From Candidatus Eremiobacteria bacterium (GTDB taxonomy: Bacteria; Vulcanimicrobiota; Vulcanimicrobiia; Vulcanimicrobiales; Vulcanimicrobiaceae), in the NCBI GenBank assembly GCA_963758295.1, contig CAVWUU010000003.1, positions 192,001 to 256,000 on the forward strand: DNA of 64,000 bases, given 5' to 3'. Positions 39,001 to 42,000 of the stretch are shown one piece after another. Made by a program: the position numbers. How positions within the stretch are numbered: the first letter of the stretch is position 1; every line of letters starts with the position of its first letter.

Positions 39001-42000
39001 CGCTTTCGGTTAGCAAACGTTCGGCGACGGCCGTTCCGACCGTGCCGCACCCAAGCAAACCGATGCCTAAAGTCCATTGCATTCCGTGCTTCCTTTTGAG
39101 ACGGGAAAGCGAGGAAACAAAAATGCCCCGCCGGTTCTCCGGCGGGGCATCTGTGAAACTCGATTGGTGCTCTTACATGAAGCCTTTCATCGGTTCACGA
39201 CGTTGCCCGCCGGGTGCATTTGCATCCAACACATGGGGCGCATCGTGGCGACGAAGCTTGCTAACATTTCGGAAAGGCTAACACACACCCTCGGCGCCGT
39301 CAAGTGACGGTGATGGAACTCGTGGGTACCATGCCGTTATGGCACAAGAAAAGTCGGGCGATCATAAGCATCACGAACACGAGCCTACGGCAGCCGAAGC
39401 ATCGCAACGCGCCGCGCAAGAACGGGAGCAGCAGCGAATTCGCGAGTTAAACGATCTCTCTCGTCAAAACCGCGGCGTTGAAAGGGGAGCGACGGACCTT
39501 GCTCCGCACGAAAACATGACGCCGGCGGAAGAACATCGCGCCGGACCCTTACCCGATCAAAAGCGCTAACAGCGTCGCGCGCGCATGTCGGCGTGCAATT
39601 GCCGGAGGCGATCGGAAACATAGCCGCGTTCGTCTTGCGTCAGCGTTGAATTTTTCAGTTCGGCGCTTTCGTACGCGATCATCGACTTGTCTGCATCGCA
39701 CGATCCATAGTAGATGTGAGGGACGGCAAATGCGCCCTGTGCGAGCGGCGCCGCAGAAAAGGGTGCGCCGGCGCTGGAATTCGGAATCAGCGGAGGCGGC
39801 GTCGGTGCGCCGGGCGGTTTAGATATGAGCGGCCGCGTATTGATCCGGTACTGCAGCTCCGAAATCTGCTCTTGAATCGCTAACCGCTGTTGCTGCGAAA
39901 CGCCCGGTTGCGTCAACTGGTACTGAAGTTGCGCGATCGTCTGCCGGTCGACGGTTGACTGCGGCAGCGTTTGGGCGGTTGCTATGGCCGGCGTCAGAGC
40001 TGCCGATAGCATGACTATTCGGGCAAGGTGCGCGGCATCGAGAATCATGTTTTAGTATACCCGTCAGCGAAGCGAACGCCGCGCAACTTCAGCGGCTACG
40101 TAGTTCGACCAATTCGCCGCCATCGTTCCACTTCAACAGGTACGAAAAAGCAGCTTTTTTCAACTGAACGGAAGATTCGGATCGGCCGAGAGCGTTAAGG
40201 GATCGGCCAACACGCTGTTGTCTTGATACGAGGCGACCGCGGCAATCATCGCGGCATTGTCCGTGCAGTATTTCGGCGGCGGTATAAACGCCGGTACGCC
40301 GTTGCGGACGCTCCACCGGCGCAGGGCATCTTGCAGTGCGGAGTTAGCCGCGACGCCGCCCGAAAGAACGACGGCGCGGTAAGAGGCGGCCGCGAACGCG
40401 CGATCGATTCTTGCAATCAAAACGTCGATGACCGCGGCTTGGAATGATGCCGCGACGTCTTCGGGCTTCGCATCGCGGCCTGCATCCGATTCTAGGAAGT
40501 AGCGTACCGAAGTCTTCAATCCGGAGAAGCTGAGATCGAGCGTACCCGGATCGGGACGATGTCGAGGAAACGCGTAGGCCGTTGCATTCCCGTTTTGCGC
40601 CAAACGATCCAAGTGCGGGCCGCCCGGATAGGGCAGTCCCAGCAATCGCGCCGTTTTGTCGTACGCTTCACCCGCCGCATCGTCCCGCGTGCGTCCGATA
40701 ATGCGCATAGCTTGCGGCGAGTGCACTTCGACCAGTTGCGAATGACCGCCGGAAACGAGCAGTGCGAGAAACGGAAACGGCGGTGCCTCTTTGCGGTCCA
40801 AGAAGGCGGCGAAGATGTGTCCGTGAAGATGATTCACGGCGTAAAGCGGTTTCTCGAGTGCGAAAGCGAGCGCTTTAGCTGCAGCTACGCCCACAACCAG
40901 GCTTCCGATCAACCCCGGTCCGCGGGTAACGGCGATGCCGTCGAGGTCTTGGAATGGCGTTCGCGCGCGCTCTAACGCGTCTTCCACCGCAGCAGAAAGC
41001 AACGCGACGTGTTGCCGGCTGGCGATTTCGGGAACGATGCCGCCGTACTTGGCGTGAAACGTGTCTTGATTGGTCGATACGCTGGCAAGGACTTCACGTC
41101 CGTCGCGAACCACGGCCGTCGCCGTATCGTCGCACGACGTTTCTATTCCAAGCAGAAGCATTGCCGTTCTTATGGCGTTGCGGGGTTGGGAACCCTGCTT
41201 AGGTGCGCGCGCTTTCCGCGCCGAGGCGCCATAAGCAAAGCAACAAGGCGACGAGCCCCGCAGCCGCGACAAACGGTGACCAGAGCAGGCCGGTAAGCAT
41301 GAAAACGCAGCTCAGTGCCACTAAGATCGGCCAGGCGCTTTCGATAGTGAAGATGCCGAGATCTTCGCCGGCTGCCGCGGGCGCAAGCATATCTTGGCGA
41401 TCGCCGTCCAAATTCGCGTTTCTTTCCGCGATCACGGCGTAGCCGGCCGTGAACGTGAGAGCTGCCGTCATGATGCCGAGGAGCATCGTTCCCGTCGCTT
41501 CTTCGTGCGCGACGAACCAGTAAGCCACCCCTATCACGACGCCGAAAATCGCCGAGCTGATAAAAAGCTGAACGAAGGTCTTCATGCCTTCGCGCCGTGC
41601 TTCATGTCCCACACGGGCCGTTCGCTTCGAATCGGCGGAATGGATGTGAAGTTAAATTCCGGCGGCGGTGACGACGTAGCCCATTCGAGCGTGTAAGCAT
41701 CCCAAGGGTTGGCGGAAACCGCTTCGTTCTTCCATGCCGAGAGCCAAACGTTTATGAAGAACAGCGCGACGCCGAACGCCATGATCAACGCGCCTATGCT
41801 GGCCACGGCGTTCAGCGCCGGCAAGTGCTCGTAGGCGGGATACGTGTAAACACGGCGCGCCATGCCTTCCATGCCCATGAACGCCATGGGGAAGAACGTC
41901 GTATTGAAACCTATGAAGAGCAGCGCAAAGCACCACTTGCCGAGCCGCTCGTTCAACTGCACGCCGAAGATCTTTGGGAACCAGAAGAAGAGCGCCGCAA

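Follow-up and report, generated by a model that had tools for sequence, protein, structure and literature searches.

A Putatively Leaderless Met/Cys-Rich Leader and Terminator Ahead of hom-metY-metX in the Vulcanimicrobiaceae: A Probable Ribosome-Mediated Transcription Attenuator

The hom-metY-metX Operon and Its Upstream Region

The window, i.e. the whole stretch of 64,000 nucleotides analyzed here (positions 192,001 to 256,000 of contig CAVWUU010000003.1 from the Candidatus Eremiobacteria assembly GCA_963758295.1), carries the hom-metY-metX operon on its minus strand. The first gene, hom (37922..39082, ATG at 39082), encodes homoserine dehydrogenase, as judged by the Pfam domains Homoserine_dh and NAD_binding_3 and by a match of 388.8 bits to NCBIfam NF004976; no second Homoserine_dh was detected in the genome, which is 82% complete. 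It is followed by metY (36613..37914), coding for O-acetylhomoserine sulfhydrylase (Pfam Cys_Met_Meta_PP), which reaches 672 bits with TIGR01326, above the cut-off of 495, and likely starts at the GTG at 37914, 5 nt past the hom stop codon. The third gene (35627..36616) encodes a metX-like homoserine O-acetyltransferase (Pfam Abhydrolase_1), the GTG of which overlaps with the metY stop codon (GTGA), and the best NCBIfam match is MetX TIGR01392, with 264.7 bits below the cut-off of 500. Ahead of hom, a Shine-Dalgarno (SD)-like AGGAAG can be read from the sequence (39089..39094), the equivalent being GGAGG in most relatives. Elsewhere in the same genome, a CBS gene (TIGR01137, 554.9 bits versus a cut-off of 510) adjoins a Cys_Met_Meta_PP paralog.

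The region upstream of the operon contains, in the order of the minus strand, a promoter, the short open reading frame (sORF) MLASFVATMRPMCWMQMHPAGNVVNR, an intrinsic terminator and a conserved CU-rich box, followed by hom-metY-metX. The promoter was read from the sequence and comprises a -35 hexamer TTGACG (39298..39303) and a -10 hexamer TAGCCT of the TAnnnT type (39275..39280), which are separated by a 17-nt spacer, with the -10 hexamer located 7 nt ahead of the ATG at 39267. This ATG opens the putatively leaderless sORF of 26 codons plus TGA (39187..39267, stop codon at 39189-39187), in which codons 9-17 (M R P M C W M Q M; 39217..39243) form a Met/Cys cluster of putative regulatory codons. 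The terminator hairpin (39121..39152) was called by a terminator scan with 14 pairs, 10 of them G-C, and has the core arms GCCCCGCCGG (39148-39139) and CCGGCGGGGC (39134-39125) around the loop AGAA; past the hairpin, the sequence and the scan place the T run TTTTTGTTT (39115..39123). The CU-rich box TTCCTCGCTTTCCCGTCTCAA (39096..39116) is the best-conserved part of the region in blastn comparisons. All of the elements that the genome-wide survey's note had listed, namely the promoter, the 7-nt gap, the 26-codon ORF and the terminator, are hence present in the sequence, with coordinates off by one base in places. The leader RNA (39266-39083) folds with -75.9 kcal/mol (z -4.19), and none of 200 shuffles folds equally well. 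Speaking against the promoter, a scan built on the E. coli consensus made no call there, because TAGCCT shares only three of six positions with TATAAT.

Distribution and Codon Signature of the Leader

The family surveyed is Baltobacteraceae-like and belongs to the Eremiobacterota/Vulcanimicrobiota, in which 87 hom upstream regions were compared. Blastn with the leader hit 30 of the 151 genomes of the family, from 20 of its 78 genera, and the conservation across the family claimed previously was re-derived, as 25 of 27 hom-bearing loci retain the promoter, the 7-nt gap and an ATG-initiated sORF with 3-7 codons for Met and 1-4 for Cys. The same sORF was found at 21 of 60 further hom loci, hence the layout occurs in 46 of the 87 regions, representing 45 genomes and 26 genus labels, although these counts and the shuffle tests below overstate independence because the loci are kin. 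All 46 loci conform to the search pattern TTGAC-N17-19-TAnnn[TAC], so that the presence of the promoter in 46/46 is by construction, since the search demanded that pattern. The -10 hexamer and the ATG lie 7 nt apart at 44 of the 46 loci (9 nt in L011 and 6 nt in L056), a distance too short for an SD sequence to serve the sORF, and the fixed spacing suggests that the sORF has a leaderless start. A point against it is that long genes with leaderless starts are only mildly enriched in the same genome.

The Met/Cys leader is absent from the remaining 41 of the 87 hom regions, and two hom-metY loci of another family (f2) likewise have no Met/Cys sORF. Among 50 scanned metY loci not labelled Eremiobacterota, the maximum was four Met/Cys codons per 10-codon window, which is within the range of the reverse-strand control. 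Blastn with the leader found no match in 104 genomes from 20 other families of the phylum, a result bounded by the sensitivity of the search, as it missed the homolog in genome G280 of a sister family (see below). None of 16 loci with metY paralogs (L180-L195; 55-58% identity) combines a promoter-proximal Met/Cys sORF with a terminator-like hairpin. One of these, L183, has a Met/Cys-containing frame of 50 codons without a terminator. When the genome was scanned for sORFs with at least five Met/Cys in 10 codons, 21 start positions were obtained, of which only the one ahead of hom lies in the context of a promoter.

The codon content of the leader is specific for one reading frame. Across the 46 loci, 157 ATG codons are in frame with the sORF (start codon excluded), compared with 8 and 3 in the other two frames. 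The sORFs span 22-29 codons and amount to 1129 codons, of which 13.9% encode Met and 9.8% Cys, as against 1.7% and 1.0%, respectively, in the long ORFs of the genome. In the 43 distinct leader peptides, Cys (10.1-fold) and Met (8.5-fold) are the only enriched residues, with Ser (1.55-fold) coming next, and the positions of Met and Cys shift between the peptides while the composition is kept.

Terminator and Antiterminator

The terminator is preserved by compensatory change. In an alignment of the 46 loci, 88.7% of the cells are paired and 11 of the 13 pairs have changes on both sides, which was reached by none of 500 shuffles; the hairpin energies range from -19 to -38 kcal/mol in 44 loci. A candidate antiterminator strand (39195..39214), which covers codons 18-25 of the sORF and has the core CCGGCGGGC at 39213-39205, can form a duplex of -24.5 kcal/mol with the terminator 5' arm at the focal locus (0 of 200 shuffles as good). 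In 42 of 46 loci, the stretch that pairs best with the 5' arm lies within codons 15-27. The mean duplex energy is -18.1 kcal/mol versus -12.6 kcal/mol for shuffles, but taken singly only 25 of the 46 loci have 10 or fewer of 200 shuffles as good. The aligned antiterminator helix is 77.1% paired, compared with 39-57% for slid controls, and its covariation score was reached by 0 of 500 shuffles, while roughly half of the sequences lack pairing at two of the nine aligned pairs. When arms were swapped between loci, the energy rose from -18.1 with the own arm to -15.6, and a value as low as the observed one occurred in 0 of 20000 permutations; the difference holds with the 22 distinct arm cores (observed -66.2, sd 11.2).

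In a model of the ribosome footprint, the arm is 79% paired when the ribosome stands at the Met/Cys codons and 52% when it stands at the stop codon, and the stalled state has the higher value in 43 of 46 loci. The model does not discriminate at the focal leader, where the arm is paired with 0.79 in the stalled state and 0.89 at the stop codon, so that discrimination at this locus would require either the upstream 1:2 hairpin of the minimum free energy (MFE) structure or a kinetic lag. This 1:2 hairpin occurs in the MFE of the focal leader. Across the 46 loci, 1:2 (anti-antiterminator) pairing is no better than in shuffles (-16.0 versus -14.9), only 6 of the 46 having 10 or fewer of 200 shuffles that match them.

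Amino Acid-Matched Leaders at Other Genes

The same lineage provides natural controls. At four hom loci of the family, a leaderless leader with terminator is rich in Thr/Ile codons instead (e.g., MPALCVIMTTTITTTTTLGEGRSGSTSA); NCBIfam and Pfam searches with the ORFs downstream of these hom genes gave no match. The genome that carries the hom leader also has leaderless leaders with WWW and WW, each with a terminator, ahead of the genes for DAHP synthase and TrpS (trpS). At six metY-first loci, a Met/Cys leaderless leader directly precedes metY, and a terminator-like hairpin follows it in five of the six (all except L164). In G280, a homologous Met/Cys sORF (MNLTSMSAMMCMCETCMVSHAEARALSK) precedes hom-metY. 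An AAAGGA SD sequence lies 6 nt ahead of its ATG, and the sORF is accompanied by a terminator and by an antiterminator spanning codons 21-26 (-18.2). The Thr/Ile leaders, the Trp leaders and the SD-led homolog in G280 all point to a ribosome-mediated attenuator.

A Model for Attenuation by Met and Cys Codons

Judging from the sequence, the hom leader probably functions as a ribosome-mediated transcription attenuator that controls the branch of sulfur amino-acid synthesis leading to homocysteine, a reading to which we assign a probability of roughly three in four. It is based on the anatomy of the leader, its conservation, the frame-specific codons, the covariation of terminator and antiterminator, and the presence of amino acid-matched leaders on other genes. 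From this basis we infer the start site, translation, ribosome stalling and regulatory outcome, as follows. Transcription would start at or beside the A of the sORF ATG, and the sORF would then be translated as a leaderless message. With Met-tRNA and Cys-tRNA both plentiful, the ribosome would cross codons 9-17, enter codons 18-25 and reach the stop codon. By covering the antiterminator strand, it would leave the 5' arm of the terminator unheld, the GC-rich hairpin and T run would form, and RNA polymerase would halt 35-40 nt ahead of hom. If either charged tRNA were scarce, the ribosome would be expected to stall within the Met/Cys cluster, where the free antiterminator strand could capture the emerging 5' arm, allowing the polymerase to continue into hom-metY-metX. 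Both amino acids would plausibly be sensed because the operon product homocysteine feeds methionine as well as, via the CBS/gamma-lyase pair, cysteine.

The classical objection to a Met attenuator is that methionine shortage should limit the charging of initiator tRNA too. A further point against the model is that, with hom as the sole homoserine dehydrogenase detected in the 82%-complete genome, a switch responding to Met and Cys only would throttle the threonine supply too. A more elaborate version of the model, which we regard as rather doubtful, would see the leader as a fail-safe, multi-input sensor for sulfur amino acids that is ancient in the class. Such a sensor would read Met-tRNA and Cys-tRNA, and perhaps Thr-tRNA, as Thr codons are enriched at positions 2-8. 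Without any translation of the leader, read-through would be its default state, which would remove the objection that methionine shortage blocks initiation, and it would relay the signal to hom translation by pairing of the terminator 3' arm with the CU-rich box, thereby freeing the ribosome-binding site, while leaderless and SD-led starts would have been swapped during evolution.

The CU-Rich Box and Alternative Explanations

The CU-rich box has one occurrence in the genome at up to two mismatches, in a 5'-UTR context, and because of this single occurrence it was rejected as a regulon motif or operator. It contains CCTCGC, which is also the core of the terminator 5' arm, and it can pair with the terminator 3' arm (91.6% paired versus 57-72% in slid controls). 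Single-sequence folds pair the box with the SD, which is left unpaired with a mean probability of 0.15-0.23, and the loop CCCATCTCAAC of the box is nearly invariant. The box is a hom-specific element, which probably pairs with the ribosome-binding site. In a relay model running from the terminator 3' arm via the box to the SD, SD accessibility is 0.23 versus 0.15, the former being higher in 27 and lower in 11 of the 46 loci, and the box-SD hairpin stays in the MFE of L001, L003, and L012. Such a relay is speculation: the pair counts favor pairing of the arm with the box, and the modeled thermodynamic gain is small.

It is conceivable, if unlikely, that regulation takes place mainly at the box and the ribosome-binding site, as the survey's note had cautioned for the box, with a protein, small RNA or ligand controlling hom translation there, and the sORF and terminator being secondary or a constitutive damper. 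The conservation of the box above all other parts of the region, its persistence in L014 and L016, which lack both the sORF and the terminator, and the box-SD folds with their near-invariant loop would fit such a site, but it leaves the frame-specific Met/Cys enrichment and the covarying antiterminator unexplained. Moreover, the metY-first loci and G280 retain the Met/Cys leader and terminator with other sequence after the terminator, and neither RNAalifold (zero consensus pairs on alignment A2 of the box region) nor Rfam returned a consensus structure or match for the box region. Being hom-specific and kept without the sORF and terminator in L014 and L016, the box is better seen as a separate element than as an alternative explanation of the attenuator.

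Still less probable is a riboswitch or protein-binding RNA that uses the same terminator and antiterminator, with the AUG/UGY triplets acting as a binding surface (cf. TRAP) or an aptamer and the frame being incidental. The triplets are regularly spaced, the GCGGCGnGG after the cluster is conserved as RNA and not as amino acids (R, W, or G), and CAA is favored over CAG in ATGCAAATG, all of which would fit an RNA ligand site. Yet the first 66 alignment columns contain no predicted conserved helix, the triplets move from clade to clade with the frame, the 7-nt start spacing and the stop placement unchanged, and an RNA ligand site accounts neither for the Thr/Ile and Trp leaders on matching genes of the same lineage nor for the SD in G280, located exactly where the leaderless start is missing. 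Searches of Rfam likewise gave no match, be it in the window at the gathering score, in the leader region with E-values up to 10, or in 20 related loci, and SAM-I, SAM-IV, and T-box (RF00230) elements were not found in the genome; the genome search for SAM-II has no bearing, as its controls stayed silent.

Met/Cys-rich peptides can bind metals, which would speak for a functional micropeptide (e.g., metal- or redox-active) that is co-transcribed with hom behind a hairpin serving as partial terminator, without amino-acid sensing. This is the least probable explanation, for although leader peptides can act in trans, as described for peTrpL (PMC7298713), the 43 distinct peptides are poorly conserved beyond their Met/Cys content, the association is specific to metY/hom, and the antiterminator overlaps the 3' end of the sORF with covariation.

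Relation to Known Systems

Methionine synthesis is a textbook pathway under the control of SAM riboswitches, T-boxes or repressors. To our knowledge, a leader peptide is not the textbook control of this pathway. If attenuation by the hom leader is confirmed, an uncultured phylum of soil and peat would use charged Met- and Cys-tRNA as its signal in place of SAM, and the leader would provide a well-covarying case for how a Met-sensing attenuator handles the shared need for initiator Met-tRNA. An annotation rule for metagenome-assembled genomes would follow as well, consisting of a promoter, 7 nt, an ATG, a Met/Cys cluster and a terminator.

Of the 10 Bacillaceae relatives that were searched, 8 have a SAM-I (S-box) riboswitch directly upstream of metY, and this riboswitch resembles the hom leader in place and role, as both would exert terminator-based control ahead of metY. 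The sensor in SAM-I is an RNA aptamer for SAM, whereas at the hom leader, where no aptamer was found, the sensor would be the translating ribosome. The classical attenuators are the trpL, hisL, thrL, leuL, pheL, and ilv leaders of E. coli and Salmonella. Like the hom leader, they combine a short ORF rich in cognate codons with an antiterminator that overlaps it and an intrinsic terminator, all placed before a biosynthetic operon; support for the antiterminator is moderate at the hom leader (25 of 46 loci). The hom leader differs by its Met/Cys codons, which are those of the end products, and by its apparently leaderless start, and no selected 1:2 hairpin was detected in it across loci. The classical mechanism is summarized in PMC4007540 and bioRxiv 10.1101/834739.

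Leaderless leader peptides ahead of amino-acid genes are described for Deinococcus deserti (PMC4007540). Mycobacterial polycysteine leaderless sORFs (Ms5788A) report the supply of charged tRNA to sulfur-metabolism genes by means of their Cys codons; they act by translational control, in which a long duplex hides the Shine-Dalgarno sequence, and have Cys runs only and no intrinsic terminator (bioRxiv 10.1101/834739). The cluster of the hom leader, in contrast, is mixed, Met-dominated and located mid-ORF, and a canonical terminator follows, hence it does not belong to the mycobacterial type. Ribosome-mediated attenuation by Cys codons has also been predicted for uORFC-8-2 before cysS in Rhodobacterales, with two Cys codons and a terminator stem plus U run (PMC8632094), and for the Cys leader peptides of actinobacterial cys/cbs operons, which have Cys runs without terminators (PMC1262725). 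Both resemble the hom leader in the predicted attenuation by Cys codons, and uORFC-8-2 also in its terminator stem and U run. They differ from it in having only two Cys codons, ahead of a tRNA synthetase gene, or Cys runs that no terminator follows, and neither senses Met; the latter paper finds no conserved RNA structures upstream of actinobacterial methionine operons.

Within the open-access literature, no leader-peptide terminator/antiterminator for methionine synthesis genes was found, and the sole precedent is metL of one Streptomyces genome (PMC8079986). There, in S. lividans TK24 (2021), the leaderless metL (MSTTSDRTPATEATTTPGARCMCRRMCAF, with a Met/Cys cluster) was annotated before the metNIQ importer. 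The survey's proposal of an attenuator is partly supported: its mechanistic part agrees with the frame-specific ATG codons, the covariation, the swap test and the natural controls, while its designation as the first leader-peptide attenuator for methionine synthesis was too strong. In contrast to metL, the hom leader sits before a biosynthetic operon and combines a canonical terminator with a covarying antiterminator, and its conservation extends across 26 genus labels and into a sister family. The trpL1 of S. lividans (…NWWW…; PMC8079986) resembles the WWW leader of the genome that carries the hom leader.

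Architecture of the hom-metY-metX Leader

The spacer ahead of the hom-metY-metX operon comprises 256 nt between a divergent small ORF on the plus strand and hom on the minus strand, and the promoter, 26-codon Met/Cys ORF and terminator that the genome-wide survey's note had placed there can all be read in the sequence. On the minus strand, a −35 element (TTGACG, 39303-39298) is followed after 17 nt by a −10 element (TAGCCT, 39280-39275), and after a further 7 nt by the ATG (39267) of a putatively leaderless small ORF (sORF), which encodes MLASFVATMRPMCWMQMHPAGNVVNR in 26 codons and ends with TGA at 39189-39187. 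The terminator scan places a hairpin with 14 pairs, as extended, at 39152-39121 (GCCCCGCCGG, loop AGAA, CCGGCGGGGC), 31-38 nt after the sORF in the window; TTTTTGTTT lies directly behind it, a CU-rich box (TTCCTCGCTTTCCCGTCTCAA) occupies 39116-39096, and AGGAAG stands between the box and the hom ATG (39082). Also on the minus strand, hom (homoserine dehydrogenase, 37922-39082) is followed by metY (O-acetylhomoserine sulfhydrylase), likely starting at a GTG (37914) 5 nt past the hom stop, and by a gene for a MetX-like acetyltransferase, with its GTG overlapping the stop codon of metY. The leader RNA in the window folds at −75.9 kcal/mol (z −4.19). The divergent ORF (39339-39569, plus strand, 76 codons) begins right at the spacer edge and has a His-rich N-terminus, MAQEKSGDHKHHEHEP...

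Distribution Among hom Loci

A blastn search with the region matched 30 of 151 genomes of the host's GTDB family, in 20 of 78 genera, most matches spanning just the box and the hom start. By tblastn, hom is present at 27 of the 30 matched loci, and 25 of these 27 carry TTGAC-N17/18-TAnnnT-N7-ATG, opening a sORF that is 23-29 codons long and contains 3-7 Met and 1-4 Cys; at loci L014 and L016 the promoter is directly followed by the box, which persists there without the attenuator. To avoid the bias of loci chosen by similarity, hom itself was also searched and found in 112 of the 151 genomes, a tally that takes in unpublished genomes on whose sequences no claim depends. Sixty further hom upstream regions were taken from matches of at least about 50% identity, leaving out contig-edge matches (genomes G033, G122), partial matches (G135, G085, G112, G133), unpublished genomes (G028, G134, G041, G008, G051), G024, G098 and G148, and paralogs below about 50% identity, among them G142. 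The Met/Cys leader occurs in 21 of the 60 and a Thr/Ile-rich leaderless leader with terminator in 4; 28 lack a sORF, their promoter being followed by either a short leader or a leaderless hom, 6 have no spacer, with hom directly behind another gene, and 1 is truncated. In total, 46 of 87 hom regions carry the Met/Cys leader (45 genomes, 26 genus labels). In a phylum sample, blastn matched 85 of 296 genomes within the family and 0 of 104 in 20 other families.

Evidence for a Translated Met/Cys Leader Peptide

Across the 46 loci, ATG triplets other than the start number 157 in frame vs. 8 and 3 in the other two frames, and Met and Cys make up 13.9% and 9.8% of 1129 sORF codons, compared with 1.7% and 1.0% in long ORFs of the genome. 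Among 43 distinct peptides, Cys (10.1-fold) and Met (8.5-fold) are enriched and no others, Ser being next at 1.55-fold. The positions of these codons vary by clade (MMCPMCCMQM, MFCMCCGG, MSTCCS), whereas the frame, the stop placement and the 7-nt distance to the −10 element (44 of 46 loci) are kept, and RNAalifold predicted no conserved helix over columns 1-66 of alignment A1 (46 sequences). This is the pattern expected of selection on codon content, unlike that of an aptamer. A genome of a sister family in the same class (G280) has MNLTSMSAMMCMCETCMVSHAEARALSK ahead of hom-metY; the ...SHAEAR part of its peptide shows clear kinship with the family's ...MHAAR. AAAGGA lies 6 nt upstream of the ATG of this sORF, which also comes with a terminator and with an antiterminator at codons 21-26. 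Preservation of the start signal of a frame by two different means makes little sense without its translation.

The sole Homoserine_dh gene found in the 82%-complete genome is hom, although it lies behind a putative Met/Cys switch. Thr codons show mild enrichment at sORF positions 2-8 (12.6% vs. 5.7%), which might allow a shortage of threonine to open the switch as well.

Upstream of the G280 sORF (locus L179, minus strand, about 1431-1303) lies a promoter-like TTGACA-N17-TAATGT, and the roughly 100-nt stretch behind it ends in a terminator-like hairpin (GCCGGGATTAAGCGCCCGGCTTTTT); this stretch has no Rfam match and might represent either a small RNA or another attenuator.

Terminator, Antiterminator and Ribosome Position

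The terminator helix is 88.7% paired on A1, and in 11 of its 13 pairs both partners vary. Directly past the Met/Cys cluster, GCGGCGnGG is conserved (reading AAR, AAW or AAG) as an imperfect copy of the terminator 3' arm. The survey's proposal that this stretch pairs with the terminator 5' arm is supported by helix covariation, duplex search and arm swapping. The antiterminator helix (columns 68-76 with 148-156) is 77.1% paired, vs. 39-57% with the partner slid, has both-side changes in four pairs, and scores 0.141 for covariation vs. 0.087 when shuffled (0 of 500 shuffles reach 0.141). In an alignment-free search, the 5' arm has its best duplex partner within codons 15-27 in 42 of 46 loci, at a mean of −18.1 kcal/mol vs. 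−12.6 for shuffled sequences; in 25 of 46 loci, no more than 10 of 200 shuffles do as well. Duplexes built with the arm of another locus are weaker (−15.6 vs. −18.1 with the locus's own arm; 0 of 20000 permutations are as low), a result that stands with the 22 distinct arm cores alone (observed −66.2, sd 11.2). Non-consensus arms are matched by sORF changes at L013 (CCCTTCGCC with GGCGAAGGG), at L047 (GTCGC with GCGAC) and in the window (CCCCGCCGG with CCGGCGGG).

The antiterminator begins a median of 7 nt after the last Met/Cys codon and, as extended, ends a median of 7 nt before the stop codon. In a simple footprint model (28 nt masked, before synthesis of the terminator 3' arm), pairing of the 5' arm core reaches 79% with the ribosome at the Met/Cys codons, 52% with it at the stop codon and 70% with no ribosome present, and pairing is higher in the stalled than in the stop state in 43 of 46 loci. 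The window leader is an exception (0.79 stalled vs. 0.89 stop); its minimum free energy fold has a hairpin between cluster and antiterminator that could serve instead, but across loci such 1:2 pairing is not beyond chance. The survey's reading of a ribosome-mediated attenuator sensing charged tRNA-Met and tRNA-Cys is well supported by the comparative evidence. Judged from sequence comparison, the element is probably a Met/Cys-specific leader-peptide attenuator.

The CU-Rich Box

The box is single-copy in the genome and the best-conserved stretch of the region. Its core, CCTCGC, recurs in the terminator 5' arm and is able to form pairs with the 3' arm (91.6% paired vs. 57-72% in slid controls; compensatory cases at L047, L083 and L085). 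When sequences are folded singly, the box base-pairs with both purine tracts at the hom ribosome-binding site; no consensus fold of the box was obtained, and its loop is invariant. We read the box as a putative element sequestering the hom ribosome-binding site.

A second, very conserved type of hom leader occurs at L049-L086 (28 hom loci), L196 and L197: TTGACGCAC...TATAGT, a short UTR, a TTG or ATG start and the N-terminal extension MSLTHPAHADR... Its DNA TCGCTTGTCGCTCACTCAACCAG resembles the attenuator-type box TCGCTTTCCCATCTCAACAGG, and one may derive from the other. At L054, hom itself is apparently leaderless (TTGACG...TACCCT, 9 nt, ATG).

Proposed Amino Acid Specificity and Related Leaders

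The operon product is homocysteine. The host genome, which also has cysE, encodes a cystathionine beta-synthase (TIGR01137, over cut-off) directly upstream of a Cys_Met_Meta_PP paralog (G000:C4:126895-129489, minus strand), likely a reverse transsulfuration pair, which would give homocysteine a route to cysteine in addition to methionine; this would explain sensing of both amino acids. At loci where metY does not follow hom, it is metY that carries the Met/Cys leader (L102, L103, L108, L143, L162, L164; e.g., MNGRCMAIMAMCASREGRCRSSSP at L103 and MDCATIATMTMCCCSLRGTV at L108), with a hairpin past the sORF in 5 of the 6 by terminator scan and none found at L164. Among 50 metY loci scanned outside Eremiobacterota, no Met/Cys leader was seen ahead of metY. 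At L084, L088, L089 and L090, from other genera of the family, Thr/Ile-rich leaderless leaders with terminators precede hom (e.g., MPALCVIMTTTITTTTTLGEGRSGSTSA); the ORFs downstream of hom there have no family match.

Bacillaceae relatives of this metY have a SAM-I riboswitch in the same place, and no riboswitch was found there in 20 Eremiobacterota loci. In the window, Rfam gave no match at gathering score, the region yielding chance-level terminator look-alikes only, and SAM-I, SAM-IV and T-box models had no match in the 82%-complete host genome.

Published examples of leaderless leader peptides come from Deinococcus deserti (PMC4007540) and from Streptomyces lividans TK24, where 'metL', with a CMCRRMC cluster, precedes metNIQ and is described as missing a typical terminator (PMC8079986). 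Cys-codon leaders are reported or predicted with translational control in mycobacteria (bioRxiv 10.1101/834739), before cys/cbs operons in Actinobacteria, as described without terminators (PMC1262725), and with a terminator before cysS in Rhodobacterales (PMC8632094). No leader-peptide terminator/antiterminator for methionine synthesis genes was found described in a search of the largely open-access literature. As a variation on known leader-peptide attenuators, the element would combine specificity for Met and Cys with leaderless initiation, ahead of an operon for methionine synthesis.

As natural controls, the host genome also holds two leaderless sORFs with Trp codons and terminators outside the window (G000:C4:718570, minus strand; G000:C1:151092, plus strand), MTTLRTFAWWWHLSAAFAGEARAFVMT preceding a DAHP synthase and MFDARAWWRPVTD tryptophanyl-tRNA synthetase. 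A further leaderless sORF with a terminator, MFAQHATVSYYYGRFNRSRPGAPLP (G000:C4:1120501, plus strand), has three Tyr codons, and the gene behind it has a weak Haem_oxygenas_2 match, under cut-off.
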